In this document: piece by piece, positions 39,130 through 55,370 of the stretch
How the letters are laid out: each line of letters opens with the position of its first letter
How positions within the stretch are numbered: position 1 is the first letter of the stretch
Assembly: GCA_027064425.1 (NCBI GenBank)
Contig: JAMOPO010000003.1
Span: forward strand, 64,001-128,000
From: Methanobacteriota archaeon
GTDB taxonomy: Archaea; JAADCQ01; Methanopyri; Methanopyrales; Methanopyraceae
Direction: 5' to 3'
DNA: 64,000 nt
Program-made: the position numbers and the translations under genes
Notes under the pieces: generated by a model
Told to the model about the DNA's origin: nothing
The model's input: the letters and a program-made list of their open reading frames with translations, nothing else
The model's database searches: none

Positions 39130-40218
39130 GTGTACTGCACGGCGTTCGGACTCGGGTTCGGCCACGCCTCGCGGGTGCTGGGGATCACCCGGGAGCTGCT
39201 GAGGCTGGAGGCTGACGTCGTGCTGAGCTCCTTCGGGGAGGGGTGGAGGCTGCTCACCAGGGAGCTGCCCGACGCGACCGTGTACAGGATCCCGACGATC
39301 GAGATCTTCTCCCGCTCGGGCTCCTTCAGCGTAGTTCACGTGCTGAAGCGGCACCCCGATCTCCCGCTGCGGTTCTACGCCGGGCTCGAGCTGGACATGA
39401 GGATAATCCGGCGGCACGGCTGCCGGGTGGTAGTGTCCGACTGCCAGTTCCACGCGCTGGCGGCGGCGCGCCTGCTGGACGTGCCCGTCGTGCTGATCAC
39501 CAACCTCCTCCGGGTCCCGAACGCCGACCCGGCCTCGAGGCTAGTGAATTGGTTCCTGCGGGAGTTTCTCAGCCTGGCCGACGTCGTGATCGTCCCCGAT
39601 GCGCCCTTCGACGAGTCCACCGATCTCGACGCGGAGGTGGTCTGGGTGGGACCGATCCTCCGGGTCCGGCCGGACGAGCTCCCCGGCGAGCGGGAGATCA
39701 GGGAGCGCTTCGGTCTGCCTGAGGACACGCCGATCGTCCTAGTCACGGCCGGCGGTTCCCCGCACGGTAGACGGATCGTGGAGCTCGCCGTCGAGGGGAT
39801 CAGGCGACTCGAGGAGGATGTGTTCACGATCGTCGTGAGCAGCGGGCTGGGAGCCGAGATCCTGCGCGGGATTCCGGGCCGGGTCCTCAGCTACGTGGAC
39901 AACTTGATGGAACTGATCAAGGTGGCGGACGTGGTGGTCACTCACGGCGGGCACACCACCATCTCCGAGTGCGCCTGCCTAAGGACGCCGGTCGTGTCCA
40001 TCCCACTGCCCGGGCATCCGGAGCAGCTGATGAACGCCCGCCGGGTGGAGGAGCGGCGGCTGGGGGTCGCCCTGATGCCTGAGGACCTCTCGCCGGTCCG
40101 GGTGGCCGAGGCTATAAGGGATGCGATGGGCAGCCGGGTACCGCGGGCGCGATTGATGGACGGCAGGGGGGCGGAACGGGCTGCCCGCATCGTCCGGGAG
40201 GCAATGGACGCGCCGTGA
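39130..40218 (+). CDS. MurG-like GT28 glycosyltransferase
   Basis: GLGFGHASR, TAGGS, HGGHTTISE, P..HPEQ..NA. Confidence 0.85.
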   Translation: MYCTAFGLGFGHASRVLGITRELLRLEADVVLSSFGEGWRLLTRELPDATVYRIPTIEIFSRSGSFSVVHVLKRHPDLPLRFYAGLELDMRIIRRHGCRVVVSDCQFHALAAARLLDVPVVLITNLLRVPNADPASRLVNWFLREFLSLADVVIVPDAPFDESTDLDAEVVWVGPILRVRPDELPGEREIRERFGLPEDTPIVLVTAGGSPHGRRIVELAVEGIRRLEEDVFTIVVSSGLGAEILRGIPGRVLSYVDNLMELIKVADVVVTHGGHTTISECACLRTPVVSIPLPGHPEQLMNARRVEERRLGVALMPEDLSPVRVAEAIRDAMGSRVPRARLMDGRGAERAARIVREAMDAP

Positions 40219-40780
40219 GGTAGGCCGGCAGCTGATACACATCGGGTTCGGGCTGCTGTTCATGGTCCCCCTGCACCTGCTCGGCCCGATCAAGTTCTGC
40301 CTGTTCTTGCTCGCGATCCTCATCCCTGGTTTGGCCGTGTCCGCCTGCGTGCGCCGCGGGATTTACGTTCCGCTGATCACGGAGCTGGTGGAGACGTTCG
40401 AGCGACCAGAGGAGATGGAGCTGCCCGGGCAGGGCACCCTGCACTTCCTCACCGGCGTGCTGGTCGCGACCGCCATCGCCCGGCAGGTCCAGATCGTGGA
40501 CGTGGCGATCATCGTGCTGGCGGTGGGGGACGGCGTGTCCACGATCGTGGGGGTTCCGTTCGGCCGAACGCCGCTCCCCCACAACCCGGACAAGAGCTTA
40601 GAGGGCAGCCTGGCCGGCTTCGTCTCCGCGGCCGCGCTGGCCTCCATCTGGACGCGAGACCCGGCCGCGTCCGTGCTGGCCTCCCTAGTGGGGACCGCGG
40701 TGGAGACGCTGCCGGCGCTGAACGATAACGTCACCATTCCCATCGCCGTCTCTCTGTTCCTCCTCTGGTGGTGGTCCTGA
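40208..40780 (+). CDS. Polyprenol (dolichol/phytol) kinase-like membrane protein; non-canonical ACG start inferred
   Basis: EVGRQLIHI lies upstream of the first ATG (40262); GDGVSTIVG, KSLEGS, NDNVTIP. Confidence 0.8.
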   Translation, partial: TRREVGRQLIHIGFGLLFMVPLHLLGPIKFCLFLLAILIPGLAVSACVRRGIYVPLITELVETFERPEEMELPGQGTLHFLTGVLVATAIARQVQIVDVAIIVLAVGDGVSTIVGVPFGRTPLPHNPDKSLEGSLAGFVSAAALASIWTRDPAASVLASLVGTAVETLPALNDNVTIPIAVSLFLLWWWS

Positions 40781-41706: not shown

Positions 41707-42154
41707 CCCGACTCTCAACGAACTCCCTGAGAAGGTCTCTCTCAACTCCCAGGGCCTCGGCCAGCCTGTCCGTCGCCTCCCGGACGAAGTCCTCAACGAC
41801 CTCCTCCAGCTCCCGCTCCACCTCCTCCAACTCCTCCTCCAGTTCCTCAGAAGACCCGCTCAGCTTGGACTTCGACTTGCGCAGCTCCTCGTTGATGCGG
41901 TCCGCCCTCCGGCGGAGCTCGCGCACCTTCTGATCGACCTCCATCTCCCGCTCTACGACGCCGACGACCTCTTCGAAGTCGAACTCAGCCCGCACGATCC
42001 GCGTGAGCAGCCGGTCGAATTCGTCCTCCCCTAGGCGCCCTCGTAGGTGCTCGGTGAGCTCCTCCAGGAACCGCTCGACTCGGAGGGAGGTCTTCGGGTC
42101 CAGCTCTCGCAGCTTCCTGCCGAGCTCGGCCGGGTACGCCTTGAACGCTCTCAG
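41693..42154 (-). CDS. Hypothetical coiled-coil protein; CTG start inferred
   Basis: Coding-like frame extends 53 codons upstream of GTG 41995 to a CTG that overlaps the upstream stop. Confidence 0.7.
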   Translation of the reverse strand: MRAFKAYPAELGRKLRELDPKTSLRVERFLEELTEHLRGRLGEDEFDRLLTRIVRAEFDFEEVVGVVEREMEVDQKVRELRRRADRINEELRKSKSKLSGSSEELEEELEEVERELEEVVEDFVREATDRLAEALGVERDLLREFVESRVSRS

Positions 42155-46241: not shown

Positions 46242-47891
46242 TTGAAGGAGCACTGGGCGGAGGTGAAGGCGCGGGAGGTTGAGAAGCACCTCGAGGAGCA
46301 CGGGTTAGAGGAGGTAGTCGTAGCGAGCGGCGCCTCGACCTCCGGCCGGCTGCACGTGGGCAACGCCCGGGACGTCCTCACCGCGGACGCCGTGGCCCGG
46401 GTGCTGGAGGAGCGAGGGCACGACGTTCGGGTGATCTGGGTCTCCGACGACGTGGACCCGCTGCGCAGGATCCCTCGGGACCTCCAGGACGAGCTCGACG
46501 AGGAGTACCTCGGCGTCCCCTACAAGGCCATCCCACTCGAGGACGGCACCCCTTACTCCGACCATTGGGCCGAGCGGTTCGTCCGCGAGCTGCGCGAGTT
46601 CGGCGTCGACGTCGACTGGGTATCCTCCGCCGAGCTGTACACGGAGGAGGAGTTCGCGGAGCTGGTCCGGCAGGCCGTGCGTGACTACTACGAGAACGGA
46701 CGACTCAAGTCCATCTTCCGCCGGTTCGGTCTCAAAGAGGCCCGCGTGTACATGCCCATCTGCGAGCGGTGCGGTCGCATCGCTACAACTCGGGTTAAGT
46801 CCATCGACGGATGGGAGATCGAGTACGTCTGCGAGGGTCGTCACCGCGTGGGCGACGCCGTGCTCGAGGGCTGCGGTCACCGCGGCAGGCTCGACCTCCG
46901 GACGCCGATCGAGGTGAACGACCTCGAGGTCCCTCCGGGCAAGCTGGGCTGGAAGGTGGAGTGGCCTACCAGATGGTACTACCTTGGCGTCGCCTGCGAG
47001 CCGTTCGGTAAAGACCACTACGTGTCCGGCGGGTCCTACGAGGTCGGCTCTGAGATCGTGGAGGAGCTCTTCGACTTCCCGGCCCCGGTGCCGGTGCCGT
47101 ACGAGTGGATCACGCTGGAAGGGAAGGCGATGTCCTCCTCCAAGGGGCACTACGCGACCCTGTCCGACTGGGCGGAGGTGTGCCACCGTGAGGTCCTTCG
47201 CTACTTCGTGCTCAGGAGCAAGCCGCTCAAGCACCTCGACCTCGACCTGAGGTTCGGGCTGCTCCAGCTCGTGGACGACTACGACGAGCTGGAGGCCAAG
47301 TACTTCAACGGCGAGGCGGACGAGCGGGAGCGCCGACTGTACGAGCTCACGCGCGTGGACGGCGTGCCCGAGGAGTGCCCACCGCACGTCCCGTTCCGGT
47401 TCTGCGCCGTCGTCGTTCAGGTGCTCGACATCCGAGGCGAGGTGGGCGAGGAGGAGCTAGAGCGGGCCGTCCGCGTGTTCCGCAGGACGGGGCATCTCGA
47501 GGAGGAGCCCGAGGGCTTCGGGCGTGAGTGGCTGAGGGAGCGGCTGGAGAAGGCGGCCCGGTGGGTGGACCGGTACGCGCCCGAGGAGGTCCGGTTCCGG
47601 GTGCGCGAGGAGCCGGAACCCGTGGAGCTGGACGAGGCGGAGCGCGAGTTCCTGCGGACCCTGCTGAGGCGGCTGGAGGAGGTCGAGTCCGAGGATCCGT
47701 CCGAGCTGCAGCGCGCGTTCTTCGACGCCGCCCGGGACGCCGGACTTAAGCCCGGCCGCGCCTTCCGGGCCTTCTACCGCGTAGTCATCGGGAAGGACAG
47801 GGGCCCGAGGGCCGGAACGCTCACAGCGGCCGTGGGGGTGGATCGGATTTCGGAGCTGATAAGGGGCTGCCTCGAGGCTTCCGGAGGCTAG
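46242..47891 (+). CDS. lysS: Class I lysyl-tRNA synthetase
   Basis: HWA, SG.LHVGN, KL.WKVEWP.RW, GKDH, MSSSKG. Confidence 0.96.
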   Translation: MKEHWAEVKAREVEKHLEEHGLEEVVVASGASTSGRLHVGNARDVLTADAVARVLEERGHDVRVIWVSDDVDPLRRIPRDLQDELDEEYLGVPYKAIPLEDGTPYSDHWAERFVRELREFGVDVDWVSSAELYTEEEFAELVRQAVRDYYENGRLKSIFRRFGLKEARVYMPICERCGRIATTRVKSIDGWEIEYVCEGRHRVGDAVLEGCGHRGRLDLRTPIEVNDLEVPPGKLGWKVEWPTRWYYLGVACEPFGKDHYVSGGSYEVGSEIVEELFDFPAPVPVPYEWITLEGKAMSSSKGHYATLSDWAEVCHREVLRYFVLRSKPLKHLDLDLRFGLLQLVDDYDELEAKYFNGEADERERRLYELTRVDGVPEECPPHVPFRFCAVVVQVLDIRGEVGEEELERAVRVFRRTGHLEEEPEGFGREWLRERLEKAARWVDRYAPEEVRFRVREEPEPVELDEAEREFLRTLLRRLEEVESEDPSELQRAFFDAARDAGLKPGRAFRAFYRVVIGKDRGPRAGTLTAAVGVDRISELIRGCLEASGG

Positions 47892-47893
47892 AC

Positions 47894-48973
47894 ACGGAGA
47901 ACGTCGTCCGCGGTGAGCTGCCCAAAGGCTGCCGGCTCTGCGTCAAGGGCGCCAAGCTGGTGGTCTTCATCACCGGCGAGTGCGAGCGGGGCTGCTGGTA
48001 CTGTCCCGTCTCCCCAGAGCGCAAGGGCCGGGACGTGATGTACGCCAACGAGCGGCCGGTGCGCGGCGAGCGGGACCTGCTGGAGGAGGCGGAAATTATG
48101 GACGCCAAGGGGGCCAGCCTGACGGGAGGCGACATCACCCTGCGGCTCGACCGCTGCGAGGAGGTGGTAACCACCCTGAAGGGCGAGTTCGGTGAGGACT
48201 TCCACGTCCACGCGTACGTGCCGGCGGAGTCCGTGAGCCGAGAGGCGCTCGACAGGCTCTCGGAGGCTGGCCTCGACGAGCTCCGGATCCACCCGTCCTT
48301 TAACGAGGACATCAACGAGCGGGCCGCCCGGTTGGCCTCAGAGTACGACTGGGACGCTGGATTCGAGATGCCCGCGATCCCCGGTCGGGAGGACTGGATC
48401 GTGGAGGTGGCGAGGCTGTCGGAGCGGCACGGGCTGGACTTCTTGAACGTTAACGAGCTCGAGTTCACCGAGTCGAACGCCGAGGAGCTCAAGGTGCGCG
48501 GGTTCAAGCGGGTGAGCGAGGACTCCGACGCCGTGCAGGGCAGCGAGGAAACGGCGATAAGGGGTCTCGCCAGGGCCGCGAAGGAGGTCTCCATCACGCT
48601 GCATTACTGCCCGTCCGTCGTTAAAGACTCCGTCCAGCTGCGCGAGCGGCTCAAGCGAACCGCCCTGAACGTGGCGGAGGAGCACGAGATGGTCGACGAG
48701 GACGGCCTGATCGTCCGCGGAGAGATTAGAGTGAAATCCGGCGACCCGGAGGACGTCGCCCGGGTGCTGACGGAGATCCTGGAGGTGCCGGAGGAGTGGG
48801 TGAGGGTGCGCACGGACCGGGTGGAGGTGAAGCCCGTAGTCCTGGAGGAGCTGGCCGACCTCCTGGACGACATCGCCGAGGCGGCCGGGTGCGAGCTCGA
48901 GGCCGTGATCGTTCGGGAGTACCCGACGTGGGACCGGACCGTGGTGGAGGTGTGGCCGGTTGGGGGTGAGTGA
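47894..48973 (+). CDS. Radical SAM protein (COG2108-like); non-canonical ACG start inferred
   Basis: Conserved GELPKGC..C.KGAK lies upstream of the first GTG (47960); CERGCWYCP, LDELRIHP, NELEF. Confidence 0.85.
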   Translation, partial: TENVVRGELPKGCRLCVKGAKLVVFITGECERGCWYCPVSPERKGRDVMYANERPVRGERDLLEEAEIMDAKGASLTGGDITLRLDRCEEVVTTLKGEFGEDFHVHAYVPAESVSREALDRLSEAGLDELRIHPSFNEDINERAARLASEYDWDAGFEMPAIPGREDWIVEVARLSERHGLDFLNVNELEFTESNAEELKVRGFKRVSEDSDAVQGSEETAIRGLARAAKEVSITLHYCPSVVKDSVQLRERLKRTALNVAEEHEMVDEDGLIVRGEIRVKSGDPEDVARVLTEILEVPEEWVRVRTDRVEVKPVVLEELADLLDDIAEAAGCELEAVIVREYPTWDRTVVEVWPVGGE

Positions 48974-55292: not shown

Positions 55293-55370
55293 GGGCCGGC
55301 AGCTCAGTCTGGACAGAGCGCGGGCCTTCGGAGCCCGTGGTCCCGGGTTCAAATCCCGGCCGGCCCACCA
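55293..55370 (+). tRNA. tRNA-Arg(TCG), intronless, CCA encoded, C at position 8
   Basis: GGGCCGG-CA-GCTC..GAGC-G-CGGGC-CT TCG GA-GCCCG-TGGTC-CCGGG-TTCAAAT-CCCGG-CCGGCCC-ACCA. Confidence 0.97.

Follow-up and report, generated by a model that had tools for sequence, protein, structure and literature searches.

Radical SAM gene at the 3′ end of lysS

The window analysed here is a stretch of 64,000 nucleotides (nt) that forms part of contig C3 of a Methanopyrus genome (G000; 57 contigs, 1.54 Mb, 67.8% GC). It carries lysS, which encodes a class I lysyl-tRNA synthetase (LysRS), and, at the 3′ end of lysS and on the same strand, a gene for a radical SAM protein whose start codon is the subject of this study. 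We propose that this gene probably starts at a CTG (47867–47869) located 25 nt inside the lysS 3′ end, and residues of its product are numbered from there. The first-pass annotation of the window had drawn attention to an ACG just past the lysS stop codon and behind a GGAGG motif, suggesting that this ACG either initiates directly or is edited to AUG in the mRNA. The layout it described is correct (GGAGG at 47883–47887, TAG at 47889–47891 and ACG at 47894–47896, the last in frame with GTG 47960), and it was also right that the frame has no canonical start back to the upstream stop: the radical SAM frame is open from 47750, after a TAA at 47747–47749, and no ATG, GTG or TTG occurs between 47750 and 47959. 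As ATT, ATC and ATA, which complete the start set of translation table 11, are likewise absent upstream of GTG 47960, CTG 47867 is the first table 11 start codon in the frame, opening a reading frame of 368 amino acids (aa).

Automatic gene calling begins the window protein (P0002) at GTG 47960 and thereby arrives at 337 aa, and a G004-like orthologue (P0003) is likewise annotated as 337 aa. However, the family-conserved segment lies upstream of this codon, as had been claimed. In an alignment of the window protein with 47 homologues chosen from the 120 best (48 sequences), the residues G21, C22, C25 and G28 of a GCxxCxxG motif, all encoded 5′ of GTG 47960, are invariant in 48/48 sequences; C39, C43 and C46 and the later C248 are invariant across the alignment as well. 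The protein has a radical SAM domain (PF04055, 44.7 bits against a cut-off of 29.5) with the CX3CX2C cluster motif, while PF26257 appears in precomputed annotation only and had no match in the scan made here. Its subfamily, which is widespread in archaea, goes in the sources by the name 'pyruvate formate-lyase activating enzyme-like'. Judged by their conservation, the N-terminal cysteines together with C248 could possibly form a second metal or cluster site; solved structures gave weak MoaA matches only (E 0.003–0.005), from which the role of the CxxC is not readable, and our literature search found nothing linking COG2108 with radical SAM.

GTG 47960 might nevertheless be the true start, either because the enzyme is truncated in this lineage or because the gene is losing its function. 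In favour of this, it is the first canonical start and the one chosen by automatic annotation for both 337-aa proteins. Yet a protein starting there would lose C22 and C25, and the sequence upstream continues to evolve as protein: in the 22 codons before GTG 47960, we counted 3 synonymous and 3 non-synonymous changes relative to the orthologue in G004 and 9–10 synonymous and 4–7 non-synonymous ones relative to G001/G002. Against G004, the rate of non-synonymous substitution (dN) from the ACG to the GTG was 0.065, compared with 0.090 for the remainder, and over the gene (358 codons) the ratio of dN to the synonymous rate (dN/dS) was 0.18, which speaks against decay. In a strain variant from sequencing run X4, the gene differs by 7 synonymous and 2 non-synonymous substitutions, and the two that fall in the N-terminal segment are both synonymous. 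By these substitution patterns the gene is not decaying, and we regard a true start at GTG 47960 as very improbable. As a canonical start would cost two invariant cysteines, a start codon other than AUG, GUG or UUG is required, and to this extent the earlier interpretation stands.

Codon substitutions around CTG 47867

We compared the start region in five species, namely G000, G004 (87% identical), G001, G002 (a sister species with a complete contig, 1.42 Mb, 58% GC) and G003; species are listed in this order below. All five have the start region of this gene within lysS or at its end. CTG 47867 is conserved in 5/5 species, and two more orthologues, P0004 and P0007, carry an annotated Met there. 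In the nine codons of the radical SAM frame that precede the CTG there are no synonymous changes at all, with 2, 2, 3 and 6 non-synonymous ones relative to G004, G001, G002 and G003; read in the lysS frame, the same stretch shows 1, 2, 2 and 0 synonymous versus 1, 1, 1 and 4 non-synonymous changes. In the stretch that begins with the CTG and runs to the ACG, the radical SAM frame gives synonymous/non-synonymous counts of 2/1, 2/0, 2/0 and 2/3 for the same four comparisons. The first five codons (CTG CCT CGA GGC TTC) are identical in four species.

Single codons of this short segment show the same behaviour. The Arg codon at 47882–47884 is CGG, AGA, CGA, CGA and AGG across the five species, hence four different Arg codons, and the next codon (47885–47887) is AGG, AGG, AGA and AGA, with Glu in G003. 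Leu 47888–47890 is encoded by CTA, CTG, CTA, CTA and TTG (three Leu codons), and Thr 47894–47896 by ACG, ACG, ACC and ACC, with Ser in G003. The last two residues of LysRS, encoded by the overlapping frame, are GG, EG, ED, ED and GS, and the two changes relative to G001 and G002 in the overlap are synonymous in the radical SAM frame and non-synonymous in LysRS. This synonymous pattern, which begins at the CTG, indicates that the radical SAM frame is translated from upstream of the ACG. If translation begins at the CTG, TTG in G003 and ACG in G000 are ordinary Leu and Thr codons.

In the mechanism that we propose, initiation would take place at the near-cognate CTG 47867, behind the ribosome-binding-like sequence GGAGCTG (47852–47858) 8 nt upstream. 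The initiator tRNA would pair with CUG despite the mismatch at the first position and would insert Met. We infer that CTG 47867 itself is the codon used. The predicted product of 368 aa would retain the invariant CxxC, the ACG at 47894 would encode Thr10, and the GGAGG before it would be coding sequence for the LysRS tail and for Arg6–Arg7 of the radical SAM protein. The CTG precedes the lysS TAG by 22 nt, and the ACG begins 2 nt after that stop. A start at the CTG leaves 10 residues before the 'GS/N' column of the family alignment, where the members shown have at least ∼6. The predicted N-termini are (M)PRGFRRLDTENVVR for CTG 47867, (M)ENVVRGELPK for ACG 47894 and (M)VFITGECER for GTG 47960. 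An AlphaFold2 model built from the alignment has a mean predicted local distance difference test (pLDDT) score of 96.4, with a mean of 93 for the first ten residues, whose columns are informed by homologues.

Table 1. Features at the lysS–radical SAM junction of the window, and candidate CTG/ATH starts elsewhere in the G000 and G002 genomes (SD, Shine–Dalgarno)
Feature	Position	Strand	Basis
lysS, class I lysyl-tRNA synthetase	46242..47891	+	Open reading frame; Pfam tRNA-synt_1f E 1.2e-112; TIGR00467 E 2.6e-115, profile 2-511 of 515
SD-like GGAGCTG, 8 nt 5′ of CTG 47867	47852..47858	+	6/7 match to genus consensus GG[G/A]GGTG
CTG, proposed radical SAM start codon	47867..47869	+	First table 11 start in frame; CTG in five species
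Radical SAM coding sequence as proposed, 368 aa	47867..48973	+	Open reading frame from CTG; dN/dS vs G004 0.18
Overlap of radical SAM frame with last lysS codons, 25 nt	47867..47891	+	Two-frame codon comparison
GGAGG, Gly-Gly tail of LysRS; Arg-Arg (Arg6-Arg7) in radical SAM frame	47883..47887	+	Sequence
lysS stop TAG	47889-47891	+	Sequence
ACG, most likely internal Thr10	47894..47896	+	ACC in G001, G002; TCG in G003
G-C-x-x-C-x-x-G motif (G21, C22, C25, G28)	47927..47950	+	Invariant, 48/48 family members
GTG, first canonical start in frame; here read as Val32	47960..47962	+	Gene callers start 337-aa protein here
Radical SAM cluster motif C39-x3-C43-x2-C46	47981..48004	+	Invariant columns; Pfam PF04055 E 2.2e-11
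TGA GAG GCT CTG behind perfect GGGGGTG, 5′ of invariant-looking VYGCAAN	C27+60086		
G000 candidate CTG/ATH starts with nearby in-frame stop	C15+341655, C3-120544, C27-116763		
TAG CTG behind perfect SD; next canonical start 66 codons on	G002 671444 (+ G000 orthologue)		
Candidate CTG/ATH start with nearby in-frame stop	G002 444743		
Candidate CTG/ATH start; read as ArgD-like from N-terminal sequence	G002 1189784		
SD+7+ATC; G000 has ATA, same spacing	G002 481999		

Start codons and ribosome-binding motifs in Methanopyrus

Start codons were compared between G000 and G002 using stop-to-stop open reading frames of both genomes paired by blastp (run in chunks, blastp-fast), which gave 1485 non-overlapping best pairs. 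Start-codon analysis was performed on 1268 pairs with scores of 150 bits or more, 408 of which have a canonical start aligned in both genomes. At these 408 starts G000 uses GTG (152), TTG (138) and ATG (118) in near-equal thirds. The ribosome-binding consensus at the aligned starts is GGGGGTG, ending ∼7 nt before the start codon: among 407 starts, the spacer from the end of GGTG to the start is 7 nt in 52, 6 nt in 28 and 4 nt in 10. The 3′ end of 16S rRNA is the usual GGATCACCTCC, with CCUCC, and its pairing with the favoured GGGGGTG contains a central G-U in place of the A-U formed by GGAGG. GGAGG itself occurs in 15,550 copies in G000, behind which a peak of ATG, GTG and TTG is absent; as a ribosome-binding motif it was dropped for the empirically derived GGGGGTG. 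TTG, ATG and (in G002) GTG are enriched after GGGGTG with a spacer of 6–7 nt. ACG, CTG and ATC showed no visible peak after GGGGTG against the high coding background.

The juxtaposition of GGAGG and ACG is by itself not distinctive. GGAGG-N6-ACG occurs 24 times in the window versus 7.9 ± 2.6 times in shuffled sequence, mostly within coding sequence, and genome-wide ACG follows 581 of the 15,550 GGAGG sites at 6-nt spacing. Opposite the 227 canonical G002 starts supported by a Shine–Dalgarno (SD) sequence, the aligned G000 codon is canonical in 158 cases, a gap in 23, CTG in 5 and ACG in none. In the reverse comparison of G000 starts with G002 codons, ACG was found in 1/230. Among the papers listed by our literature search, supplements being outside it, none dealt by title or abstract with Methanopyrus start-codon usage and none was relevant to non-canonical CUG starts in archaea; the passages of a further paper, matched for M. 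kandleri and translation initiation, did not bear on the question. An initiator-like tRNA with anticodon CAG was not found among the 35 tRNA genes that aragorn predicts in G000, which include two Met(CAT) genes. The tRNA-Leu anticodons that aragorn reports for G000 are GAG, TAA and TAG; CAG is absent, even though CTG far exceeds the other Leu codons in frequency, and intron-containing or split genes may be missed.

Direct initiation at ACG 47894 by the initiator tRNA, aided perhaps by GGAGG and by termination-reinitiation at the lysS TAG, appears unlikely in the light of these data. The arrangement on which this idea was built is real: only 2 nt separate the stop from the ACG, GGAGG pairs perfectly with the CCUCC of the 16S 3′ end, and in G003 a TTGA start/stop overlap occurs at nearly the same place. 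An assembly error can be discarded, as 47894–47896 is covered by Logan contigs from X1, X2 and X4, three runs of one study, with no difference listed; coverage by run X5 (a second study) begins only at 47930. ACG is also kept in the closest species, G004, and in the metagenome contig L078, both without a canonical start. However, its conservation, proposed earlier as a check across genomes, does not extend further: the codon reads ACC in both G001 and G002, TCG in G003 and ATG in no relative. The GGAGG is not conserved either, with GAAGG in G004, GAAGA in G001/G002 and GGGAG in G003, and GGAGGCT, placed in the register used in the genus, leaves 4 nt to the ACG compared with an optimum of 7. 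Moreover, the codons 5′ of the ACG evolve as coding sequence in the radical SAM frame; a start at the ACG would leave a single residue before the 'GS/N' column, giving an N-terminus shorter than that of any family member shown; and ACG lies outside the table 11 start set. Nor is it supported across the genome, as ACG lacks positional enrichment after GGGGTG and in genes without a canonical start (see below), and is all but missing opposite SD-supported starts. Thus, of the earlier interpretation, the need for a non-canonical start persists, but its assignment to ACG 47894 is not supported.

Editing of the same codon, by deamination of C 47895 in the mRNA to turn ACG into AUG, perhaps through a CDAT8-like enzyme, seems on this sequence comparison scarcely credible. 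Methanopyrus edits tRNA C8 to U8 by CDAT8, and the tRNA in the window does have C8 as described earlier: it is a tRNA-Arg(TCG) at 55293–55370 (+), with the C at 55300. This C8 fits the C8 tRNA genes known in Methanopyrus and is irrelevant to the mRNA question. The DNA, furthermore, is truly ACG in several assemblies. A search for sequencing runs listed five, none of them recorded as RNA. Nevertheless, the ACC and TCG of relatives are not convertible to AUG, none of these genomes has ATG at the position, and none of the SD-supported canonical starts in the sister genome is aligned with an ACG in G000. The second example, put forward as a recurrence of the same geometry at 40208, does contain GGAGG (40197–40201) and ACG (40208–40210), but the geometry is common and the ACG aligns to GAT in G004 and G005. 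Finally, the coding-type pattern 5′ of ACG 47894 makes a start at that codon unnecessary.

Other routes into the frame, which together we judge to be improbable, include initiation at CTA 47888 or CTG 47918 and a –1 frameshift from lysS that would yield a LysRS–radical SAM fusion. Where G000 has CTA, G004 has CTGA and G003 TTGA overlapping the lysS stop, and a second gene of the window without a canonical start, encoding a CTP-transferase-like protein, has GTA in G000 opposite the TTG or CTG of relatives. Yet CTA has two mismatches to AUG, and CTA, CTG and TTG all encode Leu, as expected for an internal residue; CTG 47918 is CCG in G004. For the frameshift, a formal X XXY YYZ heptamer (GGGCCCG) exists at 47801 in the lysS frame. 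However, LysRS is complete without a fusion, and the codons of the radical SAM frame at 47840–47866 change only non-synonymously and are therefore probably untranslated, and on this ground the fusion was rejected.

Genes without a canonical start across the genome

We also searched for other genes whose conserved sequence extends beyond the first canonical start. An unfiltered count of conserved upstream extensions (280/1485 pairs) was discarded, as it mostly reflected open alternative frames over upstream genes. Filtering of the G000–G002 comparison for extensions of at least 10 codons 5′ of the first canonical start, with at least 50% identity and in the frame of best codon usage, retained 20 G000 genes out of 218 candidates. 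On inspection, these 20 included two tRNA genes, one SelD with a TGA-encoded selenocysteine and one probable wrong frame. Many of the remaining genes have a G-run SD followed by CTG 6–9 nt later, several with an in-frame stop just upstream. In individual CTG/ATH cases (Table 1), the in-frame stop lies 0–5 codons before the candidate start, and the SD is perfect in some and matches down to 5/7 in others.

The gene of G000 contig C15 with a TGA, on the minus strand, has conserved sequence running through the in-frame TGA (…LHG-TGA-ACKLPQGDLE…), with 8 synonymous changes and 1 non-synonymous change after it relative to its G002 orthologue (reverse-strand 1402674–1403628). We take its motif to be that of selenophosphate synthetase with a TGA-encoded selenocysteine, and aragorn finds a tRNA-Sec in G000.

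In a looser set of genes lacking a canonical start, comprising after exclusions 30 genes of G000 and 22 of G002, CTG behind an SD of at least 6/7 shows the strongest enrichment of any codon, in G000 and in G002 alike. SD+CTG accounts for 10/57 in G000 versus a background of 547/6825 (p = 0.014) and for 5/26 in G002 versus 132/3364 (p = 0.003), both p values being uncorrected for 64 codons, which weakens them as support for a CTG start. SD+ACG is at background in the same genes (2/37 in G000 and 1/14 in G002). In these genes the count of SD-preceded ACG and CTG starts, suggested at the outset, tended towards CTG and not ACG. The two sets have orthologues in common, and with so many G-runs in the genome this SD threshold is permissive; we therefore regard the enrichment as suggestive. 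A scan for a perfect SD with a near upstream stop and a long open reading frame yielded 26 sites in G002, where CTG was commonest (4); in G000 it gave 187 apparently start-less matches, and this set was rejected as too noisy because of spurious long open reading frames at 68% GC.

Two further genes of the window lack a canonical start at the expected place. The gene of the CTP-transferase-like membrane protein (40157–40780, +) has its first canonical start at ATG 40262, and a conserved RE-x-GRQLIH lies upstream of any canonical start in G000. Its ACG 40208 corresponds to GAT in the closest relatives G004 and G005, ATT in G002, ACT in G001 and GAA in G003. No canonical start for the gene was found in G004 and G005 in the stretch examined. 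Where G001 and G002 start with TTG, the aligned codon is CTG in G004/G005, ATA in G003 and GTA 40220 in G000. All six genomes have a G-run followed after 9 nt by CTG (40181); it is located, however, within the upstream glycosyltransferase gene, and the residues that follow are poorly conserved. The other gene lies on the minus strand, from a candidate CTG start at 42152–42154 down to ∼41696. An in-frame TGA (42163–42161) is located inside GCGGGTGA and is followed by GGG GAG CTG, 7 nt past the SD; a canonical start comes only after a further 53 codons. The orthologue in G002 carries a TTG, a few codons 3′ of the aligned position.

These comparisons allow a broader, tentative proposal, which we hold to be about an even chance at best: start-codon selection may be relaxed genus-wide in Methanopyrus, with ∼1% of conserved genes, among them the radical SAM gene and the two others in the window, starting behind GGGGGUG at CUG or AUC/AUA, and perhaps at GUA or ACG as well. 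In the G000 lineage, with its 68% GC, canonical starts that relatives keep would have been eroded.

Points against the proposed CTG start

Several observations weigh against CTG 47867 as the start of the radical SAM gene. The substitution argument comprises ∼9 codons with 4–5 substitutions, in genomes that are related and hence not independent. The SD is imperfect: it matches at 6/7, with a C mismatch inside, and lies 8 nt from the CTG where 7 would be optimal. In a genome so rich in G, an SD of at least 6/7 precedes 7.8% of codons as background. Conservation of the CTG is itself partly fixed by the Gly-Cys codons of lysS, the first base alone being free. The Met at this position in P0004 and P0007 may reflect only the annotators' choice of the longest open reading frame; a search for the DNA of these two in six genomes and among eight metagenome loci did not find it, the close loci being L078 (G004-like) and L079/L080 (G003-like). 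In G003, G001 and G002, TTG or GTG codons nearer the lysS stop could be the real starts of those genes, although none has a well-spaced SD. Lastly, the case for use of the CTG in vivo is built on sequence comparison.

A further point is that synonymous sites of lysS 5′ of the CTG are oddly conserved: of the codons that are degenerate and identical in amino acid, 17/19 are fully identical in about the last 23 versus 187/369 (51%) in the whole gene. The conserved stretch covers ∼12 codons 5′ of a variable pair, which itself lies before the CTG. This indicates that another constraint acts there, which could add to the conservation downstream of the CTG. A perfect GGGGGTG at 47834–47840 lies inside the conserved lysS stretch (47823–47860, +); it is 26 nt from the CTG, which is too far, and has no start codon at the right distance. 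An RNA hairpin with the sequence following the CTG, predicted by RNAalifold and having as its arms the two blocks of conserved synonymous sites, was considered as an explanation for the conservation of the lysS 3′ end and rejected. Only 3 of its 27 pairs show a compensatory change, and its single-sequence fold is no better than that of shuffled sequences (z +1.1; 176/200 shuffles fold as well or better).

Discussion

Overall, our data suggest that the radical SAM gene has a CTG start of a rare but accepted prokaryotic class, and on the sequence comparisons made here we find this the likelier account; it may form part of a genus-wide relaxed use of start codons. Reconstructed changes to CUG are very rare: Belinky et al. 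(2017, PMC5622118) give 2 AUG → CUG switches among 61,358 AUG starts. As in the rare CTG starts covered by table 11, the proposed start is a near-cognate NTG behind an SD-like element in a gene with no canonical start to use. Unlike them, it sits 25 nt inside the upstream gene and is predicted from sequence, and in Methanopyrus it would be one of several such starts in a genus that uses ATG, GTG and TTG about equally. The layout also resembles that of overlapping genes coupled in translation through termination-reinitiation or through an SD within the upstream gene, in that the start region lies in or at the end of lysS in the five species, with TTGA in G003 and CTGA in G004.

In plant organelles, C-to-U editing creates AUG from ACG. 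The Methanopyrus locus shares with these cases a genomic ACG where a start is imaginable; in contrast to them, no relative has ATG at the site, and the Methanopyrus ACG behaves as a Thr codon. We know of no mRNA-editing machinery in archaea, and in these comparisons mRNA editing in archaea finds no support.

If the gene starts at CTG 47867, gene callers shorten the enzyme to 337 aa, at the cost of two invariant cysteines. This kind of mis-annotation probably affects a dozen or more Methanopyrus genes, two others in the window among them, and structural or functional work on such proteins would begin from the wrong N-terminus. If CUG and AUH starts are indeed in use, Methanopyrus would be a natural system for studying start-codon fidelity in a hyperthermophilic archaeon.

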